Part shown: in pieces, positions 1-10,058 of the stretch
Position numbering within the stretch: position 1 is the stretch's first letter
Layout of the letters: every line of letters starts with the position of its first letter
Position numbers and translations under genes: made by a program
Notes under the pieces: model-generated
Told to the model about the DNA's origin: nothing
The model's input: only the letters and a program-made list of their open reading frames with translations
The model's database searches: none
Assembly: GCA_963969005.1 (NCBI GenBank)
Contig: CAXAJC010000001.1
Coordinates: forward strand, 1,477-65,476
Direction: 5' to 3'
From: an uncultured Cellvibrionales bacterium
GTDB lineage: Bacteria; Pseudomonadota; Gammaproteobacteria; Pseudomonadales; Porticoccaceae
DNA length: 64,000 bases

Positions 1-1041
1 CAATCAAAACATGACAATGAAGCTTTTGCCGATGGTGTGTTGGGTAATGTGACTGGGTCGACCAAGGATCAGTATCAATATATTGGTTCGATGTTTTGGG
101 ATGATTCCAGCCAGCGTATTTCTGTTCTTGCTGAGCGTGAAGAGGAAGACTATAAGCAGCGTGGTCCTCTGAGTTGGGGCTTGGACCCCAATCAGGATCG
201 TGAGCGTGATACGGATAGCTTTGCTATTGAATATCGCAGTGATATCTCTGATCGCCTCAGTCTGGCACTGAGCAGTCGCTACGACGATAACTCTGAGTTC
301 GATAGCGCCAGTACATATCGAATGGAAGCGGTTTATCAATTAGGTGACGATACCAGATTGCGCAGCGCCTATGGCACAGCGGTCAAGAACCCGACTTTCA
401 CTGAGCGCTTTGGTTTTTACACCAACTTTATTGGTAATCCCGAGCTGAAGCCTGAAGAGTCAACCAGCTGGGAGTTGGGCATTGATCAACAGTTAGGTGA
501 TTTAAGCCTGTCTGCAACGCTGTTTGATGCTGAGTTGGAAAATGAAATTAACGGTTTTGCTTATGATGCGGTGAATATGGGTTATACCGCCACCAATAAA
601 GAGGGTGTTAGCAAGCGTCAGGGTATTGAACTCACAGCCTCAGTGGAAATGGATGAAAGTCTGGCCCTTAGTGCAGCCTATACCTACACCGACTCTGTTC
701 AGCCGGATGGTGCTGGTGGCTATGAGGATGAAGTGCGCCGTGCCCGCCACACAGCCAATCTAAATCTGGCTTGGCAGGCGACGGATCTGCTGCAGCTAAC
801 GACCAATGTCCAGTATAGCGGCAGTCAGAGCGATGAGTTTTTCCCGCCCTGGCCGACGCCTTCAGAGATTGTCACCCTAGATGACTACACCTTGTTAAAT
901 GTAAACGCTAACTTTAGTGCAACAGACAGGTTGGACATTTATCTGCGCCTGGATAACCTGCTGGATGATGACTACGAAGAAGTATTTGGTTATCAGACAT
1001 TGGGTTTTGGTGCCAGCCTGGGTCTGCGCTTTAGCCTCTAA
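1..1041 (+). CDS. btuB: TonB-dependent outer membrane receptor, BtuB-like (5' end lies outside the window)
   Basis: Frame is open from base 1. Amphipathic beta-strands, LFDAELENEI and LRLDNLLDDDYEEVFGY...LGLRFSL C-terminal signature of TonB receptors. Heads an operon containing cobO and btuF. Confidence 0.75.
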   Translation, partial: QSKHDNEAFADGVLGNVTGSTKDQYQYIGSMFWDDSSQRISVLAEREEEDYKQRGPLSWGLDPNQDRERDTDSFAIEYRSDISDRLSLALSSRYDDNSEFDSASTYRMEAVYQLGDDTRLRSAYGTAVKNPTFTERFGFYTNFIGNPELKPEESTSWELGIDQQLGDLSLSATLFDAELENEINGFAYDAVNMGYTATNKEGVSKRQGIELTASVEMDESLALSAAYTYTDSVQPDGAGGYEDEVRRARHTANLNLAWQATDLLQLTTNVQYSGSQSDEFFPPWPTPSEIVTLDDYTLLNVNANFSATDRLDIYLRLDNLLDDDYEEVFGYQTLGFGASLGLRFSL

Positions 1042-1051
1042 GGCAGAGACC

Positions 1052-1750
1052 ATGGCTGGTTCAGTTGATACAGGGAAAAAGCGAGTGTTGCTCTCTTGGA
1101 GCAGTGGCAAAGACTCGGCTTGGACTCTGTATCAACTGCAACAGGATCTAACGGTTGAGGTGGTGGGTTTGCTCACCACCTTCAATAGTCAGTTTAAGCG
1201 TTCGGCCATTCATGGCGTGCGCCAACAGTTGCTGCGCCTTCAGGCACAGGCGGCGGAGCTACCACTGATCGAAATTCCTCTGCCCTGGCCCTGCAGTAAT
1301 GAGCAGTATGAAGCTATTATGGGCAAAGCTGTGGATGATGCCCGGGCTCAGTTGCAGATGGATGCGGTGGCCTTTGGCGATCTGTATCTGGAAGATATCC
1401 GCAACTACCGGGAGCAGCAAATGGCTGGCACTGGTTTGGAGTTGGTCTTTCCCCTGTGGCAGATTCCCACCGACCAGCTGGCACAGCAAATGATTGATGG
1501 CGGCCTGAAGGCGGCTATTACGTGCCTTGACCCCAGGGTTATGCCGGAGCATTTGGCTGGTTATCAGTTTGGCCCTGAACTATTGGAGCAGCTTCCGCAA
1601 TCTGTGGACCCCTGTGGAGAAAATGGTGAATTCCACACCTTCGCCTGGGATGGCCCCATGTTTAAGCAGCCCATTCCAGTGATGGCTGGCGAAGTGGTTA
1701 ATCGGGATGGTTTTGTCTATGCTGATTTGCTGTTGGAGGATAGCCTATGA
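1052..1750 (+). CDS. Dph6/MJ0570-like PP-loop ATP pyrophosphatase (diphthine-ammonia ligase family)
   Basis: SWSSGKDS PP-loop, FGDLYLEDIRNYRE, FPLW and DPCGENGEFHTF motifs. Start placed at ATG 1052, just after the receptor stop. Confidence 0.85.
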   Translation: MAGSVDTGKKRVLLSWSSGKDSAWTLYQLQQDLTVEVVGLLTTFNSQFKRSAIHGVRQQLLRLQAQAAELPLIEIPLPWPCSNEQYEAIMGKAVDDARAQLQMDAVAFGDLYLEDIRNYREQQMAGTGLELVFPLWQIPTDQLAQQMIDGGLKAAITCLDPRVMPEHLAGYQFGPELLEQLPQSVDPCGENGEFHTFAWDGPMFKQPIPVMAGEVVNRDGFVYADLLLEDSL

Positions 1751-2661
1751 AAATAGTCTCATTACTGCCCAGTGCCACCGAATTGGTCTGTGGCCTCGGC
1801 CTGCGCGATCAGTTGGTGGGTGTATCCCATGAATGTGATTACCCAGCTTCTGTGGTTGGCTTGCCGGTGCTCACCAGTTCGCGAATTCCCGAGGGGTTGG
1901 ATAGCGGCGAGATTGATCGACTAGTTACCGATCAGCTAAAAAATGATGAAGCTCTCTATGATCTGGTAATGGAGCCACTGACGCAGTTGCAGCCGGATTT
2001 GATTGTCACCCAGGCCCTGTGTGATGTCTGCGCCGTATCTGGCAATGATGTTGCCAAAGCTATTGGCAGTCTGCCCGGTGACCCCCAGGTGGTAAATCTG
2101 GAACCTATCTGCCTCAACGATGTGCTGGATACTGTCGATATGCTGGCTCAGGCCGCCGACTGTGTGGAGCAGGGTATGCGTTACAGAGCAGAGCTTCAAG
2201 GCAGAATTGATGCTGTTGCCGAACGCTCAAAAACATTGATCGACAGACCCAAAGTGGCGCTGCTGGATTGGCTTGACCCATTGTTTGATGGGGGACACTG
2301 GAGTCCGGAAATTATTGATCTGGCTGGCGGCGAGCCCTGCTTTGGCGCCAAACAGGAACCTTCCCAGCGACGGGAGTGGGAACAGCTGATTGAAGCTCGC
2401 CCGGACTGTATTTTTATTGCCCTGTGCGGCTTTAATGTGGAGCGGTCAATGCAGGATATTGAGGCGTTTTTAGCCACTGACGGGTACGCCGAACTTAAGG
2501 CGGCCTGCAGGCCAAAAATATTTCTGGTGGATGGCAATGCCTACTTTAGCAGGCCCGGCCCAAGGCTCGTGGATGCACTTGAAATCATGGCCCATGCACT
2601 GCATCCCAACACTCATTTATTGCCCGGCGGATTACCCGACGCCATAACAATTATTGAATAA
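1747..2661 (+). CDS. BtuF/TroA-fold cobalamin-binding-like protein, no signal peptide, Cys-rich
   Basis: Starts directly with MKIVSLLPSATELV...LVGVSHECDYP, which aligns with the mature BtuF N-terminus. Also PDLIV and YFSRPGPRL motifs. ATGA overlap with the upstream gene. Confidence 0.8.
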   Translation: MKIVSLLPSATELVCGLGLRDQLVGVSHECDYPASVVGLPVLTSSRIPEGLDSGEIDRLVTDQLKNDEALYDLVMEPLTQLQPDLIVTQALCDVCAVSGNDVAKAIGSLPGDPQVVNLEPICLNDVLDTVDMLAQAADCVEQGMRYRAELQGRIDAVAERSKTLIDRPKVALLDWLDPLFDGGHWSPEIIDLAGGEPCFGAKQEPSQRREWEQLIEARPDCIFIALCGFNVERSMQDIEAFLATDGYAELKAACRPKIFLVDGNAYFSRPGPRLVDALEIMAHALHPNTHLLPGGLPDAITIIE

Positions 2662-2672
2662 GGTTTAGTCCC

Positions 2673-3287
2673 ATGACAGACGACAAGGCGAAAAAAGAAA
2701 GCAGCCACAAAACCAAAATGCAGAAGCTCAAGGAGAATGTGGATTCTTCTATTGCAGCCGCAGATACCGAGCGCGGTGTGATGATTTTGCTGACTGGCAA
2801 TGGCAAGGGCAAATCCAGTTCTGCCTTTGGTATGGTGATGCGCGCTCTGGGTTATGGCTATAAAGTTGGTGTAGTGCAGTTTATTAAAGGCGCTCAGTTA
2901 TCCGGCGAAGAGATGTATGTGCGCGATCATTGCCCCCAGGTGACTTTTCAACAGATGGGCACCGGCTTTACCTGGGATACCCAAGATCGCTCAGGCGACA
3001 TAGCTGCGGCAGAAACCAGCTGGGCTGTGGCAGAGGAAATGCTTAAGGATGAAAGCTATCATCTGGTGGTTCTGGATGAGATTACGTATATGCTTAGCTT
3101 TAAATATCTGGATCAGGATATGATTCTGGATGCCCTTAAAAATCGTCCGGCCAATCAATCGGTGGTCGTTACCGGTCGCGGTGGCGGTTCAGCACTGGCT
3201 GATATGGCCGACACGGTCTCTGAAATTAAAGAAGTGAAGCACGCTTATAATTCTGGCGTGATGGCCCGCAAGGGCGTGGACTATTAA
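2673..3287 (+). CDS. cobO: cob(I)alamin/corrinoid adenosyltransferase
   Basis: TGNGKGKSSSAFG P-loop, VVQFIKG, GTGFTW, LDEI, TGR and KHAY motifs of CobO/BtuR. Confidence 0.95.
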   Translation: MTDDKAKKESSHKTKMQKLKENVDSSIAAADTERGVMILLTGNGKGKSSSAFGMVMRALGYGYKVGVVQFIKGAQLSGEEMYVRDHCPQVTFQQMGTGFTWDTQDRSGDIAAAETSWAVAEEMLKDESYHLVVLDEITYMLSFKYLDQDMILDALKNRPANQSVVVTGRGGGSALADMADTVSEIKEVKHAYNSGVMARKGVDY

Positions 3288-4307
3288 TTGCGGCGTGTCT
3301 CCGCGCAAAGCTTAATCTGGGCGCTGGCAATTCTGTTGCCAGTGGCCGCCCTTGTTTCCATGACCGTGGGCACAGTCAATATTTCTCTGGCCGATACACT
3401 GAGTGCAGTGGTTGGCAATTCTGTTAGTCAGCAAACTGATACCATTCTTTTTGATATTCGCCTGCCGCGAATACTGCTGGCGATTTTTGTCGGTGCTGTT
3501 TTAGCCAGCACGGGCGCCGTTATGCAGGGGTTGTTTCGCAACCCATTGGCGGACCCTTCCCTAATTGGCGTTTCCAGCGGTGCCTCTGTGGGCGCCAGTT
3601 TAATGATCGTCACCGCCGGTGGTTTTATTCAGAGCGGTGCTCTGGTTGGTTTGTCTCTGGTTGCTGTGGGTGCTTTTGTCGGAGGTTTTGCGGCCACATT
3701 GCTGGTTTATCGACTGGCGACTTCAGGAATTGGCACATCAGTTACCACCATGCTGTTGGCCGGGATTGCCATAGGCGCACTGGCCGGTGCCCTTAATAGC
3801 TTGCTTAGCTATTTTTCCGACAATGATATGTTGCGCCAGATAAGTCTGTGGCAAATGGGCAATCTCAGTGGTGCCAGCTGGTTAAAGGTCAGTATTATGG
3901 GGGCAGTGGCGATTTTTTTAATGCTGCTGTTTCCCAGGGAGAGCAAAGCCCTTAATGCATTATTGCTGGGGGAGTCCGAGGCCCGGCATCTGGGTATTGA
4001 TGTGCAGCGGGTTAAGCGTCGCTTGATTATTTTGACAGCGCTGGGGGTGGGTGTTTCTGTGGCTCTGGCTGGTCTGGTCGGCTTTGTTGGTCTGATAATG
4101 CCCCATATAGTGCGCCTGGCTATAGGTCCGGATCACCGCTGGCTGGTACCTGGCTCGGCATTGGCTGGAGCTACATTGCTAGTGATTGCTGATAGCCTGG
4201 CACGTATTGTAGTGATTCCCGCCGAGCTACCCACAGGCATTCTTACCGCTCTTCTAGGTGCCCCATTCTTTGTCGCACTGCTGCTAAAGCAGCGCAAGGA
4301 TGTGTAG
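3288..4307 (+). CDS. FecCD-family ABC permease (HmuU/BtuC-like)
   Basis: IRLPRILLAIFVGAVLA, QGLFRNPLADP, EARHLG, GFVGLIMPH and ELPTGILTALLGAPFF motifs. Confidence 0.9.
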   Translation: MRRVSAQSLIWALAILLPVAALVSMTVGTVNISLADTLSAVVGNSVSQQTDTILFDIRLPRILLAIFVGAVLASTGAVMQGLFRNPLADPSLIGVSSGASVGASLMIVTAGGFIQSGALVGLSLVAVGAFVGGFAATLLVYRLATSGIGTSVTTMLLAGIAIGALAGALNSLLSYFSDNDMLRQISLWQMGNLSGASWLKVSIMGAVAIFLMLLFPRESKALNALLLGESEARHLGIDVQRVKRRLIILTALGVGVSVALAGLVGFVGLIMPHIVRLAIGPDHRWLVPGSALAGATLLVIADSLARIVVIPAELPTGILTALLGAPFFVALLLKQRKDV

Positions 4308-4310
4308 CCT

Positions 4311-5084
4311 GTGACTATGCTTGCCGACAATATCTCTCTGCACCTTTCGGGCTTTGATCTGTTGCGCAATATCAGCCTTGAGGTTAAAGCCGGTGCGGTG
4401 ACCGCTATTGTTGGCCCCAATGGTGCTGGCAAGTCAAGCTTGCTTAAAGTACTGACTGGAGAGATAGCGCCGACCAAGGGCGATGTGTATCTCAACCAGC
4501 GGGAGCTATCCCATTGGCCGCTACTACATCGGGCAAAGATGCTCGCGGTGCTGCCCCAGCACACATTGCTCAATTTTCCTTTTACTGCCGATGAAGTGGT
4601 GGGTCTGGGTCGCATCCCCCACCAGACTGGCGTGATTAAAGATAATGAAATTATTGCCCAGGCGTTGGACCTGGTGGATGCCAGCTACCTGCAAAAGCGT
4701 TTTTATACCCAGATGTCCGGGGGCGAAAAACAGCGAGTGCAGTTAGCCCGAGTGCTGGCGCAGATTTGGCAGCCCAGTGATTATGGTGAGCAGTTTCTGG
4801 TGCTAGACGAGCCCACCTCAGCCTTTGATCTATCACACCAGCAGCTGACTCTGGAGATTGTTCGTCAGCTGGCAGAGAGGGGTGTTGGTGTACTCATGGT
4901 GGTCCATGACCTTAATCTGGCGGCCCGCTGCGCGGATAATTTGGTGGTCTTTAATGGTGGTGCTATCGCCGCTCAGGGCAAGCCAATCGATATTCTTAGT
5001 GAGCAGCTAATCGACAAGGTATTTGGTGTGAAGTCTATTATTTCCCAACATCCTGTAACCAAACGACCACTGGTGATTACCTGA
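4311..5084 (+). CDS. ABC ATP-binding protein (HmuV/BtuD-like)
   Basis: Walker A GPNGAGKS, MSGGEKQRVQLARVLAQIW and LDEPTS; resembles HmuV. Confidence 0.9.
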   Translation: MTMLADNISLHLSGFDLLRNISLEVKAGAVTAIVGPNGAGKSSLLKVLTGEIAPTKGDVYLNQRELSHWPLLHRAKMLAVLPQHTLLNFPFTADEVVGLGRIPHQTGVIKDNEIIAQALDLVDASYLQKRFYTQMSGGEKQRVQLARVLAQIWQPSDYGEQFLVLDEPTSAFDLSHQQLTLEIVRQLAERGVGVLMVVHDLNLAARCADNLVVFNGGAIAAQGKPIDILSEQLIDKVFGVKSIISQHPVTKRPLVIT

Positions 5085-5956
5085 TGCGCCTGCTCAGTAT
5101 TTTGATGGCCTGGTGTTCCCTCTCGGTAATGGCCGACGTCAGGGTAGTGGACGACAATGATGATGAGGTGAGGCTGGCAGCACCTGCCCAGCGGATTATC
5201 AGTCTGGCTCCCAATATTACTGAAGTATTGTTTCATATTGGTGCTGGGGAGCTGATTGTGGGTGCCGATGAATATAGTAATTACCCGGAGGCGGCAAAGC
5301 AGATACTGCGGGTAAACAACCATGCGGCTGCCAACTATGAGTTGATTCTCTCCCTCAAGCCAGATTTGGTGATAGCCTGGCAGTCGGGCAATGGCGATAA
5401 GATTATTAGTCCGCTGCGCAAACTGGGTATTCCTGTTTTTGTGGTGGAGACCCGTGAAATTGAGCGTATCCCCAATCTGTTTCGGCGCTTTGGCCAACTC
5501 AGTGGTAACAATGAGCTTGCCCAGCAGCGCATAGAGGAGTTTACCCAGCGTTTGCAGCTGTTGGGAGATGCCCAGATAGGCAAGTCTGTGGTCAGGACTT
5601 TTTATCAAATTTGGGATCAGCCACTGATTACTTTAAATGGCAAGCATATGGTCAGTGATGTGATTGAACTTTGCGGCGGGGTTAATGTTTTTGCCGACGC
5701 GGCGCCTCTGGTGCCTTATGTGAATATTGAATCTATAGTGGCAGCAGATCCCCAGGTGATTATTGCCGGAGGCAGTCAGGACGAGCAATCCAGCTGGTTT
5801 AGCAGTTGGCAAAAGTGGGATGGCATTTCCGCGGTGCAGCATAAGCAGATCTACCTGATTCCCGCAGACCTGATGCAGCGCCACTCAGTGCGTATTCTGG
5901 ATGGCGCCCAAATGATGTGTGATTATCTGGATAACGCCAGAATAGCAATAGACTAA
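5084..5956 (+). CDS. btuF: periplasmic cobalamin-binding protein
   Basis: Sec signal peptide, RIISLAPNITEVLFHIGAG, YSNYP, LKPDLVIAW and MQRHSVRILDG. TGATG overlap with the ATPase gene. Confidence 0.85.
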   Translation: MRLLSILMAWCSLSVMADVRVVDDNDDEVRLAAPAQRIISLAPNITEVLFHIGAGELIVGADEYSNYPEAAKQILRVNNHAAANYELILSLKPDLVIAWQSGNGDKIISPLRKLGIPVFVVETREIERIPNLFRRFGQLSGNNELAQQRIEEFTQRLQLLGDAQIGKSVVRTFYQIWDQPLITLNGKHMVSDVIELCGGVNVFADAAPLVPYVNIESIVAADPQVIIAGGSQDEQSSWFSSWQKWDGISAVQHKQIYLIPADLMQRHSVRILDGAQMMCDYLDNARIAID

Positions 5957-6047: not shown

Positions 6048-6074
6048 AAAGCCGCTAACAGTGTTAGCGGCTTT
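6048..6074. terminator. bidirectional intrinsic terminator between the btu operon and amtB
   Basis: Perfect inverted repeat AAAGCCGCTAAC-agt-GTTAGCGGCTTT with an A-tract before and a T-tract after, between convergent genes. Confidence 0.8.
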
Positions 6075-6157: not shown

Positions 6158-7468
6158 TTATAGGTCATACCCCCTCTCATCATGCTCAGTGAGATCTAGA
6201 CCTCTGGTCTCGTCTTCTTCGTCGACACGTAATACTAACAGTTTATCGACAAGTTTCAACAGTATAAATGTCGCTATACCTGTATAGACGAACGTAGAGG
6301 CAATACCCACAATCTGAACATAGGTCTGAGAGGCCATGGTCATACCTTCGTTGTAACCCTGCCCGCTGAATACGCCCAGCGCATCGGAAGCAAAAACACC
6401 AGCAAGGAATGTACCCAACATACCACCAACGCCGTGCACGGGAAATACATCTAGGGAGTCATCAATTTTAAAGCGCTGTTTGATTGCCTGAGTGGCGTAA
6501 TAGCAGATAACACCGGCACTAAAGCCAATAACCAGTGCGCCGCCAGGGCCCACAAAACCAGAGGCTGGGGTAATAGTACCCAGTCCGGCAACCATACCAG
6601 TCACAATTCCCAGTACAGAAGGCTTACCGTGCTTCAGCCATTCCATCATCATCCAGGCTAGGGATCCGGATGCAGCTGAGATATGAGTCACTAGCATAGC
6701 CATACCTGCGTCACCGTTAGCAGCCAGTGCTGAACCGGCATTAAATCCAAACCAGCCAACCCAGAGCATACCAGCACCGGTGATGGTCATGGTCATATTG
6801 TGGGGAGGCATTGCCTGTTTGGCGAAACCTTTACGGTTGCCCAGAACCAGTGCTGCAACCAGGGCGCCAACACCAGCGGTAATATGTACAACGGTACCAC
6901 CGGCAAAATCCAGCAGACCCATGCTGCCAAGCCAGCCACCACCCCAAACCCAGTGGGTAATAGGTGCGTAGACAACAATCAACCACAGGGCACTGAACAG
7001 CAGCATGGCGCTAAAGCGCATACGCTCGGCAAAGGCACCGACAATCAGGGCTGGGGTAATAACAGCAAATGTCATCTGGAACATGGCAAATACAGACTCG
7101 GGAATGTCACCGGCCATTGAGTCTTCAGCAATATTACCCATCAGCAGGTTATCAAGATTGCCGATCCAGGCATTCATGGAGCCGCCGTCGCCAAAGGCGA
7201 GGCTGTAACCAAAGGCAAACCAGATCAATGAGGCCATGCAGGTAATGGCAAAGCACTGCATTAAAACCGAGAGTACATTTTTAGCGCGAACCAGGCCGCC
7301 GTAAAACAGTGACAGACCGGGAATGGTCATAAACAACACCAGCGCGGTTGATGTTAAAATCCATGCAGTGTTGGCGCCATTTAATTCGTCGGCAAACGCC
7401 TGAGTCGATAGCGCGGTTAAAATAATCGCAAGAACACCGCGATTGAGGTATTTGTTATTGGTTAGCAT
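6158..7468 (-). CDS. amtB: ammonium transporter
   Basis: GLSLFYGG, FQMTFA, DFAGGTVVH, GWFGFNAGS and DDSLDVFPVHG, with both pore histidines present. Cleavable signal peptide. Confidence 0.97.
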   Translation of the reverse strand: MLTNNKYLNRGVLAIILTALSTQAFADELNGANTAWILTSTALVLFMTIPGLSLFYGGLVRAKNVLSVLMQCFAITCMASLIWFAFGYSLAFGDGGSMNAWIGNLDNLLMGNIAEDSMAGDIPESVFAMFQMTFAVITPALIVGAFAERMRFSAMLLFSALWLIVVYAPITHWVWGGGWLGSMGLLDFAGGTVVHITAGVGALVAALVLGNRKGFAKQAMPPHNMTMTITGAGMLWVGWFGFNAGSALAANGDAGMAMLVTHISAASGSLAWMMMEWLKHGKPSVLGIVTGMVAGLGTITPASGFVGPGGALVIGFSAGVICYYATQAIKQRFKIDDSLDVFPVHGVGGMLGTFLAGVFASDALGVFSGQGYNEGMTMASQTYVQIVGIASTFVYTGIATFILLKLVDKLLVLRVDEEDETRGLDLTEHDERGYDL

Positions 7469-8065: not shown

Positions 8066-8647
8066 TTGATTAGAATTCTTTGCACCACAGCAATCTTGTT
8101 GGGCTCTTTGGCAGGCTGCTCATCCACAGTTGTCCCGGCCAAAGTGGGGCCTACTGGCGAGTATATTGGCTGGCACTGTTCAGGAGATATTACCTCTGAG
8201 AGCAATTGGAACTGTGAACAGAAAACCTTAAAAGATGGCAAGGTTGTCACCGCTGCGGTGCCGCCCCAGGCAGCAGCTCCGGCAGCGCCCTCTAATCAAG
8301 AGCCTGCGCAAGAGGAACCTATTAAAGAAAACGCGCCGAGCCCGGTTACAGATGCTGCCCCTGCAGAGACCGTTTCTGCAAAGACACAGCCGAGCCTTCC
8401 AACCACAGGTTACAGCCTGCAACTGGGAGCTTATCTCAGCCGCCAGCAGGCCGAAGAAGTGGCAGCTGATATGGTACTTAGCGGCACACTTGAAGTGAGA
8501 GAGATCATGTCCCAGGGTAGGGCTTTTTCGGTTATTTTGCTGGGCCACTATCCCACACGCAGTGACGCAGAGGCTGCGGCTCAGAATTTAACCATCAGCT
8601 ATTGGGTTCGCTCTATGAGGTCTCTCGCTGATGCCGCGGTCGACTGA
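8066..8647 (+). CDS. SPOR-domain lipoprotein
   Basis: Lipobox LAGC, Pro/Ala-rich linker, C-terminal YSLQLGAY...LGHYPTRSDAEAA SPOR-like domain. Confidence 0.75.
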   Translation: MIRILCTTAILLGSLAGCSSTVVPAKVGPTGEYIGWHCSGDITSESNWNCEQKTLKDGKVVTAAVPPQAAAPAAPSNQEPAQEEPIKENAPSPVTDAAPAETVSAKTQPSLPTTGYSLQLGAYLSRQQAEEVAADMVLSGTLEVREIMSQGRAFSVILLGHYPTRSDAEAAAQNLTISYWVRSMRSLADAAVD

Positions 8648-9173
8648 AACTACTACAGACACCAGATTAAACACCTTTGCCACTGGTGACAGCAGCAGTG
8701 CCGGGCCGGAGGGCAATCTCGATTACGGACTACTTAAACAGCAACTGCAGGGTCTGATCGACAATGAGACTGATGCTGTTGCCAATCTGGCCAATGTCGC
8801 AGCACTGCTGTGGCAGGAAGTGCCGAAGATCAACTGGGTGGGGTTTTACTTGCTCAAACAAGAGCAGTTGGTGCTGGGGCCGTTTCAGGGCAAACCGGCC
8901 TGCTCTCGAATATCAATAGGAGAGGGGGTCTGCGGCACTGCAGCGGCCATGGGCAGAGCCATCGTGGTTGCTGATGTGCATCAATTTCCCGGGCATATTG
9001 CCTGTGATCTGGCCAGCAAGTCGGAAATTGTTGTGCCTCTGTGGCGAGATGGCCAGTTGCTGGGTTTATTGGATATCGACAGCCCGGTCATCGATCGCTT
9101 TGACTACCTCGACCAACAGGGTTTGGAGGAGTTGATGCAAACCTTACTGGCGCGTCTTGAGCTGCCACTATAA
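8631..9173 (+). CDS. msrC: GAF-domain free methionine-R-sulfoxide reductase
   Basis: INWVGFY, LGPFQGKPAC, GEGVCG and HIACDLASKSEIVVP with the conserved cysteines. Confidence 0.85.
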   Translation: MPRSTETTTDTRLNTFATGDSSSAGPEGNLDYGLLKQQLQGLIDNETDAVANLANVAALLWQEVPKINWVGFYLLKQEQLVLGPFQGKPACSRISIGEGVCGTAAAMGRAIVVADVHQFPGHIACDLASKSEIVVPLWRDGQLLGLLDIDSPVIDRFDYLDQQGLEELMQTLLARLELPL

Positions 9174-9200: not shown

Positions 9201-10058
9201 GTGACCTTGAGAATTGGCAGTTTTATTAATCCGCAGCATATTTTTCGCGCTTTTAAATATGTTGTTTACCTTTTGGTAACGATCAATATATTTTTATTTT
9301 TCCAAGAAGAGTCGCTTGCTACCGCCCAGACCTTCAGCCAGGGCATTAATCTGGTGGATATTATTCAGGGGTTTGCATCGACTATAGATACAGCAGCCTG
9401 GGTGCTGCTGCTGTTACTGTTTGAATTTGAGACCTCGATTCTGGACGATCAAACCCTGCGCCAACCCAAAGTGCAGGCTTTTTTTATTACCCTGCGCACC
9501 TTTTGCTATGGTTTTATCCTTTATGCCTCCTATGGCTATATTTCAAAGATGCTGCTGTTGCACAATATTTCTCCGGTGGCCATAGCCGATCTCTGTAATC
9601 AGCTGGGCCAGGGATTCAGCAGCATTGTAACCATTGACGAGTATCCGCCACTGGATGCCCAGAGTTGCGTTACGCTGGCTAATCAGGAGCTCTATGGGCT
9701 AGACGGGGAGCAGGTGATTGGCAGCGCCTCTGACTGGACAGCTATTCAGTGGCTGGCCTGGGTCGATGTAATTAATTCTCTTGCCTGGATTGCGGTTGTG
9801 ATTATTTTGGAAATTGATGTCTGGCTGCAGTTGCGCGGTCGTCTTGAAGGGCGCTTTGTCAGCATTAGCCAGCTCATTAAGGTGGTTCTCTACGCAATAT
9901 TATTTGGTGCAGCTGTGTATTGGGGGCTGTTGGGCGACTTCCTTGATTTCTGGGATGCCTTTTTGTGGCTGGTGGCCTTTGTCTTTATTGAGATGAATAT
10001 CTTTCAATGGCAGGCGGAAACCAATGCTGAAACCAGCATTGGTGCCGAGGCGGTCTAG
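9201..10058 (+). CDS. hypothetical integral membrane protein with three internal repeats
   Basis: 285-aa ORF with about six hydrophobic segments, following msrC. Function not recognised. Confidence 0.7.
   Translation: MTLRIGSFINPQHIFRAFKYVVYLLVTINIFLFFQEESLATAQTFSQGINLVDIIQGFASTIDTAAWVLLLLLFEFETSILDDQTLRQPKVQAFFITLRTFCYGFILYASYGYISKMLLLHNISPVAIADLCNQLGQGFSSIVTIDEYPPLDAQSCVTLANQELYGLDGEQVIGSASDWTAIQWLAWVDVINSLAWIAVVIILEIDVWLQLRGRLEGRFVSISQLIKVVLYAILFGAAVYWGLLGDFLDFWDAFLWLVAFVFIEMNIFQWQAETNAETSIGAEAV

Follow-up and report, generated by a model that had tools for sequence, protein, structure and literature searches.

The window analysed here is a stretch of 64,000 nucleotides (G000:C1:1477-65476) from the genome of an uncultured bacterium of the Porticoccaceae (G000; 2.05 Mb, 98.9% complete). 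It opens with a B12 acquisition operon controlled by a cobalamin riboswitch, in which two accessory cytoplasmic genes separate the receptor gene from cobO. The first of these specifies a PP-loop ATPase of the DUF71 family, and the second a BtuF-fold protein devoid of a leader peptide, hereafter referred to as cBtuF. The features of the operon are, in window coordinates:

-1233 to -979 (G000:C1:243-497), in front of btuB: cobalamin riboswitch (RF00174, 99.8 bits)
1..1041, plus strand: 3' part of btuB, TonB-dependent B12 receptor (TIGR01779, 2e-40; PF00593); the gene starts upstream of the window
1052..1750, plus strand: PP-loop ATP pyrophosphatase (COG2102/PF01902) assigned to the DUF71-B12 subgroup, 232 amino acids (PF01902, 7e-26, 91.5 bits)
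1735-1739, plus strand: GGAGG, 8 nucleotides upstream of the ATGA overlap
1747..1750, plus strand: ATGA stop/start overlap of the DUF71 and cBtuF genes (translational coupling)
1747..2661, plus strand: cBtuF, leaderless BtuF-fold class III binding protein, 304 amino acids (PF01497 Peripla_BP_2, 3e-18, 66.6 bits)
2673..3287, plus strand: cobO/btuR, ATP:cob(I)alamin adenosyltransferase (PF02572, 5e-60; TIGR00708, 6e-63)
3288..4307, plus strand: btuC-type ABC permease (family profile match)
4311..5084, plus strand: btuD-type ABC ATPase (family profile match)
5084..5956, plus strand: btuF, periplasmic B12-binding protein with an N-terminal signal sequence (NF002894, 3e-50; alignment)
6048..6074, no strand assigned: palindromic hairpin of 12 bp between the convergent btuF and amtB genes, the probable end of the operon

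The genes are arranged compactly on the plus strand in the order btuB-DUF71-cBtuF-cobO-btuCDF, with btuC, btuD, and btuF spaced by 0-3 nucleotides or overlapping, behind the sole cobalamin riboswitch of the genome, which lies about 1 kb before window position 1. This arrangement is repeated in five congeners and in related metagenome contigs and is therefore not a chance juxtaposition. Four proteins with B12-binding domains are encoded in the genome, so the organism needs B12. Near-identical proteins come from Porticoccaceae/SAR92 sources, and the host is a small-genome, SAR92-type member of the Porticoccaceae. It uses the cofactor but is incapable of either synthesizing it or reassembling the nucleotide loop.

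The DUF71 protein scores 91.5 bits against PF01902 (Diphthami_syn_2; cut-off, 23.2) and aligns over its full length to archaeal Dph6 structures; PF28410, which is listed for its homologues, is Diphthami_syn_2_C. Its PP-loop reads SWSSGKDS (S17-S-G-K-D-S22). Residues S17, G19, K20, D21, H54, and T196 belong to an ATP site held in common with the archaeal Dph6 protein PF0828; S17-S22, H54, and T196 align to S12-D16, H48, and T189 of that protein and are invariant in 30 homologues. Since these residues are kept, the protein is probably an adenylating enzyme that has retained its activity. Foldseek searches with its AlphaFold2 model (predicted local distance difference test score [pLDDT], 93.8) returned the archaeal Dph6 proteins PH1257 (2d13) and PF0828 (3rk1) as best matches (template modelling [TM] scores of 0.77-0.82), with TilS, ArtA, MnmA, ASS, and LarE far behind. 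Dph6 (EC 6.3.1.14; PF0828, PH1257, and the yeast protein) and the window enzyme thus share the fold, the ATP-site residues, and probably the adenylate-then-amidate chemistry. However, the window enzyme failed the Dph6 equivalog test (TIGR03679, 64.6 bits versus a cut-off of 197.3) and carries the subgroup signature E190-N-G-E-F-H195 in place of the EGGE/DxE of Dph6, and bacteria are devoid of the EF2 diphthine substrate. It is a Dph6 homologue, not Dph6 itself, and cannot be making diphthamide. With its Dph6-like PF01902 fold, PP-loop and ATP site, ENGEF/YH motif, and clustering with B12 genes, it is very probably a member of the DUF71-B12 family placed within a B12-handling operon.

This subgroup was defined by the ENGEF/YH motif in a study (de Crecy-Lagard et al. 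2012, Biol Direct 7:32, PMC3541065) that found B12 transporter genes next to 75 of 102 bacterial DUF71-B12 genes and cbiB next to 18, as well as an anticorrelation with CbiZ in bacteria. Its authors proposed that DUF71-B12 replaces bacterial CbiZ, converting pseudo-B12 to adenosylcobyric acid or serving another remodelling route, to which a reviewer objected within the same paper that PP-loop ATPases are ligase-type enzymes, not amidohydrolases. A 2016 table from the same group (PMC5041015) still lists DUF71-B12 as "function unknown, B12 salvage." The window locus resembles those of the 2012 study in the PF01902 domain, the PP-loop, the ENGEF/YH motif, and the btuB/btuCDF neighbourhood behind a B12 riboswitch. 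It differs in a host without CbiB, CobS, and CbiZ and in the leaderless BtuF-fold partner, which is absent from that paper. The enzyme and its association with B12 genes are already known, and the locus is one more case of an unsolved family puzzle; what is added here is the argument from CbiB/CobS absence, a set of naturally occurring deletion variants in one genus, and the broader leaderless BtuF-fold family.

The N terminus of cBtuF, MKIVSLLPSATE, matches Vibrio BtuF (5ysc) at residue ~22, i.e., at the first strand of the mature domain. The protein therefore has no signal peptide, unlike the true BtuF of the operon (5084-5956), which has a signal-type N-terminal extension. It failed the BtuF equivalog test (NF002894, 32.8 bits versus a cut-off of 234), and its AlphaFold2 model (pLDDT, 90.3) adopts the class III binding-protein fold, with RhuT, ShuT, and the BtuF proteins of Vibrio and E. 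coli as the closest Foldseek matches (E values of 1e-15 to 1e-12), in agreement with the profile search. Like BtuF (E. coli 1N4A, Vibrio 5YSC) and the periplasmic heme-binding proteins ShuT, RhuT, and BhuT, cBtuF has two lobes, a backbone helix, and a conserved DYP region. Members of its family differ from these proteins in the lack of a leader peptide, an insert of ~25 residues after strand 2, and the invariant residues H28, C30, C92, C95, and C227, which lie within the motifs SHECD[YF]P, TQxxCxVCAV, and CGF. In the alignment, these His/Cys motifs take the place of the BtuF segment around Trp66 and border the DYP motif; they fall at the position of Trp66 and around Tyr50, which we take to be contact residues of BtuF. 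The invariant residues are predicted to line the ligand cleft at the lobe interface. Thiol-lined handlers of imported cobalamin are exemplified by BtuM, a Cys-ligating solitary S-component B12 transporter, and by human CblC/CblD, a conceptual parallel to cBtuF, with no sequence or fold relationship detected. A preliminary description of this DNA had reported a translationally coupled gene pair between btuB and cobO within a B12 salvage operon, consisting of a Dph6-family PP-loop ATPase that would not act on diphthine and a BtuF-fold protein without signal peptide. All of these elements lie where it placed them, and the assignments are borne out by the PF01902 and PF01497 matches, the PP-loop, the TIGR03679 score together with the lack of a bacterial diphthine substrate, the start of cBtuF at the mature-domain strand, and the control of the operon by RF00174.

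A metagenome scan with the cBtuF profile yielded 80 loci, in which the gene neighbours DUF71 (11 loci), a BtuB-type receptor (about 10 loci), a DUF6580 membrane protein (11 loci), or, in a more distant cBtuF subgroup, a creatininase-family amidohydrolase (15 loci). The order btuB-(DUF6580)-cBtuF recurs in about 9 metagenome loci, and a riboswitch lies directly before DUF6580-cBtuF in L094 and before btuB-...-cBtuF in L115. These riboswitch-DUF6580-cBtuF and btuB-cBtuF loci tie cBtuF to B12 uptake independently of DUF71. DUF6580 is a membrane protein of ~180 amino acids that weakly matches 4hzu_S, an ECF S-component; its gene stands immediately upstream of cBtuF (L094:4987-6897; L115:896-4546), often after btuB, and the same gene pair occurs at L089, L096, L098, L105, L111, L112, L114, L122, and L142. 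The two proteins may constitute a BtuCD-independent corrinoid uptake pair. The distant cBtuF subgroup (41-45% identity) is followed by the creatininase-family gene at L121, L124-L127, L131, L134-L136, L139, L143, L145, L151, L154, and L160. TPR and DUF6989 genes often lie on its flanks, as does a divergent radical SAM gene encoding a B12-binding domain, and no riboswitch was found in the loci scanned. The literature searched contained no description of a leaderless cytoplasmic BtuF-fold family, and searches for DUF6580 yielded nothing either.

Within the genus, DUF71 behaves as an accessory gene. It was found in 6 of 13 genomes, always in the order btuB-DUF71-cBtuF-cobO, and cBtuF was found in 9 of 13. 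One congener (G007, L192:6885-6995) has the operon btuB-cBtuF-cobO-btuCDF with an 86-nucleotide spacer and no DUF71. In another (G009, L193:6780-6950), the same operon retains a DUF71 remnant of ~130 nucleotides left by internal deletion, in which the first ~90 nucleotides of the gene, with the PP-loop mutated to SSEKDS, are joined to the last ~40. DUF71 is thus lost by deletion while cBtuF and cobO persist, and its loss from an otherwise intact cBtuF-cobO-btuCDF operon is more in keeping with an optional repair or analogue-use step than with obligatory processing. A bona fide cBtuF is encoded elsewhere in 8 of 25 genomes whose DUF71 gene is an orphan (without btu, cobO, or BtuF-type neighbours) and in none of five genomes of the btuF-DUF71 type. 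Given these counts, the occurrence of cBtuF without DUF71, and that of DUF71 without cBtuF in other phyla, we dropped the idea that cBtuF is an obligate subunit of DUF71; the preliminary description had treated the two as a pair, which as an obligate unit does not hold.

The cobamide gene content of DUF71-bearing genomes narrows the range of possible substrates. No CbiB (at the Pfam cut-off), CobS, or CbiZ was found in the host genome or in 12 genomes of the same genus, and both CbiB and CobS are present in 4 of 8 genomes from other families of the order. In a set of 17 genomes from other phyla with DUF71 sited in a B12 context, CbiB occurs once and CobS twice. A sample of the order (151 genomes) contains DUF71 in 9, CbiB in 50, and both in one, i.e., CbiB in 1/9 DUF71-positive versus 49/142 DUF71-negative genomes, a table that is not significant by itself (one-sided Fisher test, p=0.14). 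Pooled, CbiB is found in 2 of 25 DUF71-B12 genomes against a background of 33% (binomial p=0.004). The DUF71 module therefore sits in pure cobamide importers.

This finding bears directly on the published proposal that DUF71-B12 substitutes for CbiZ, opening cobamides to allow reassembly of the nucleotide loop with the lower ligand that is preferred. The anticorrelation with CbiZ and the 18 of 102 genes adjacent to cbiB (PMC3541065) speak for such a role, as does the absence of CbiZ from the host genome. However, the cleavage product would need CbiB, CobU, CobS, and CobT. CbiB and CobS are absent from the host and its 12 congeners, and CbiB is missing from 16 and CobS from 15 of the 17 genomes of other phyla; furthermore, PP-loop ATPases are ligase-type enzymes rather than amidohydrolases. 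The remodelling role thus fails for these importers, and we regard it as very improbable; the preliminary description had favoured a role distinct from CbiZ, which these gene contents support. CbiZ and CbiR do resemble the system proposed below in being cytoplasmic, acting on imported cobamides, and often being encoded beside btu genes, but they are hydrolases of unrelated folds whose products require the missing CbiB and CobS. In the absence of both enzymes, any corrinoid substrate of DUF71 must already be a complete cobamide.

The best explanation as a whole, to which we assign a probability of roughly 0.4, is a B12-import operon equipped with cBtuF as an escort and DUF71 as a re-amidating enzyme. 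PP-loop enzymes work by adenylating an oxygen of a carboxylate or carbonyl group, from which a nucleophile then displaces AMP. Cobamide side chains are known to be deamidated by hydrolysis, which gives inactive products ranging from mono- to heptacarboxylic acids (PMC9822362). Since a complete cobamide has carboxylates solely from deamidation, side-chain re-amidation is the most conservative chemical reading, and it is better supported than the published CbiZ-like role. Imported corrinoid would be held in the cytoplasm by cBtuF and passed to CobO, a function as acceptor or escort suggested by the genomic context and fold of this protein. DUF71-B12 would use ATP to adenylate a free carboxylate of the complete imported cobamide, an amide would then replace the carboxylate with release of AMP and pyrophosphate, and the hydrolysed side chains would be restored, all as an optional step. 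Corrinoid side-chain amidation as the actual DUF71 reaction is a tentative assignment that is more apt to be wrong than right. The same reaction type, ATP-dependent amidation of corrin carboxylates, is catalysed by CobQ/CbiP and CobB/CbiA; the fold of these enzymes, in which a CbiA/MinD-type ATPase is combined with a GATase domain, is unrelated to that of DUF71, and they act on loop-less intermediates in de novo synthesis.

In its most elaborate form, which is unlikely to hold in every part, this explanation would make cBtuF and DUF71-B12 a cytoplasmic "cobamide reception and repair" branch of pure B12 importers. A His/Cys-lined escort would take the corrinoid from BtuCD, or in other lineages from an S-component-like DUF6580 permease, and hand it to CobO, and DUF71-B12 would re-amidate damaged cobamides held by the escort. 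Such a branch would be distinct from CobQ/CobB, CbiZ, and CbiR and would be a bacterial counterpart of the CblC/CblD trafficking idea.

Several findings weigh against re-amidation by DUF71 and an escort role of cBtuF. A profile from 51 diverse DUF71 homologues was used to collect the 80 nearest loci in GTDB species genomes, with neighbour families derived by clustering of recurrent neighbour open reading frames, and just 17 of the 80 have btu, cobO, or BtuF-type neighbours. Nine of these have an adjacent leaderless cBtuF (Pseudomonadota, Acidobacteriota, Gemmatimonadota, Armatimonadota, and Vulcanimicrobiota); in eight, DUF71 adjoins btuB and/or btuDCF-type genes, arranged in six cases as a btuB-btuD-btuC-btuF-DUF71 string, and the BtuF of at least one such locus (L067) has a clear signal sequence. 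Enrichment of bacterial Dph6-like genes near btu/cob genes, which the preliminary description had offered as a check, was already published in 2012 (75 of 102 genes). Rfam scans found no cobalamin riboswitch at any of 16 orphan DUF71 loci. Fusions of DUF71 to GNAT domains, in both domain orders, make up 7 of the 150 closest 50%-identity cluster representatives and are real (17 distinct fused proteins of 383-393 amino acids); they are 45-54% identical to the window protein, some of them with ENGEFH, and lie in B12-free neighbourhoods. Orphans and fusions hint that the family substrate is not, or not only, a corrinoid, and together with the lack of riboswitches they leave room for one that is not exclusively so. 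The replacement of the catalytic-motif Glu by His was taken in the 2012 study as a sign of possibly different chemistry from that of Dph6 (PMC3541065). The literature searched contained no biochemical assay of any DUF71-B12 protein, only that study and citations of it, and no evidence for an abundant natural pool of deamidated cobamides. Finally, the His/Cys residues of cBtuF could form a metal or Fe-S site instead.

Part of this evidence would be accommodated if DUF71 had a substrate other than a corrinoid, for instance a small amino- or carboxy-metabolite or the carboxylate of a protein, with its place in B12 operons reflecting co-regulation or a B12-linked protein target. In addition to the many orphans without riboswitch and the recurrent GNAT fusions in unrelated neighbourhoods, to which PPTase and DUF2284 fusions can be added, a maximum-likelihood tree interleaves B12-context and orphan genes with at least 14 changes, so that they look like one orthologous group, and the ancestor Dph6 itself acts on a protein carboxylate. 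As many as 44 of the 63 orphan loci fall in one Acidobacteriota-rich clade, and outside this clade 13 of 32 genome loci are in a B12 context. On the other side, btu and BtuF-like genes are the commonest conserved DUF71 neighbours, spread over more than six phyla, the other neighbours being sugar kinases, glycosidases, and the like; DUF71 is translationally coupled inside a riboswitch-controlled operon; and the 2012 neighbourhood statistics (PMC3541065) favour the B12 link. We consider a non-corrinoid substrate unlikely. The enzyme might instead use ATP for a different reaction on a complete, cBtuF-bound cobamide, be it adenylation of an amide or carbonyl oxygen as in QueC and TilS, attachment of a nucleophile that is not ammonia, or the exchange or loading of a ligand ahead of CobO. 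The position of DUF71 directly upstream of cBtuF and cobO would suit this possibility, the invariant His in the catalytic motif is consistent with it, and the fold search does find PP-loop enzymes that activate carbonyl or amide oxygens (TilS, the nitrile synthetase ArtA, MnmA, and LarE). However, congeners that keep cBtuF and cobO can do without DUF71, and we know of no cobamide modification that requires such chemistry, so we give this alternative a low probability.

A further alternative concerns the partner only: cBtuF could carry a metal (Co, Zn, or Fe) or an Fe-S cluster in the cytoplasm, or serve CobO as a redox partner. TroA-like relatives of its fold bind bare metals, its invariant H28, C30, C92, C95, and C227 gather at the lobe interface, and its distant subgroup sits, riboswitch-free, beside creatininase-type hydrolases and radical SAM genes with B12-binding domains. 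Its best fold and profile matches are nevertheless tetrapyrrole binders (RhuT, ShuT, BhuT, and BtuF), and its linkage to riboswitches and btuB is recurrent. Cys-Co ligation, moreover, occurs in BtuM and CblD. We therefore judge a metal or redox function of cBtuF decidedly unlikely and retain corrinoid escort by this protein, with optional re-amidation by DUF71, as the preferred explanation.

The missing function of DUF71-B12 has been an open problem since 2012, and the cofactor economy to which it belongs shapes communities in the sea and in soil. If DUF71 repairs deamidated cobamides, B12 auxotrophs could tap a "dead" vitamin pool that current models ignore. The locus provides variants with DUF71, without it, and with its deletion remnant in one genus for comparative tests, and it draws attention to a family of leaderless BtuF-fold proteins found repeatedly in B12 contexts.

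Some additional features of the DUF71 family and of the window are worth recording. The GNAT-fused DUF71 proteins are P0250, P0253, P0254, P0266, P0273, P0279, and P0312 (loci L182-L185), and single fusions to PPTase (P0247) and DUF2284 (P0263) were observed. In P0260 (458 amino acids), two DUF71 units follow one another in tandem, and the ENGE[FY]H motif occurs twice. Convergent to btuF in the window is the gene of an Amt-family ammonium transporter (amtB; 6158-7468, minus strand). This transporter was considered as an ammonia supplier of DUF71 and dropped, since the synteny is also kept in Porticoccaceae operons without DUF71. An open reading frame of 285 amino acids without a Pfam match (9201-10058, plus strand) lies near genes for a SPOR-domain protein (8066-8647) and a GAF-domain protein (8631-9173).

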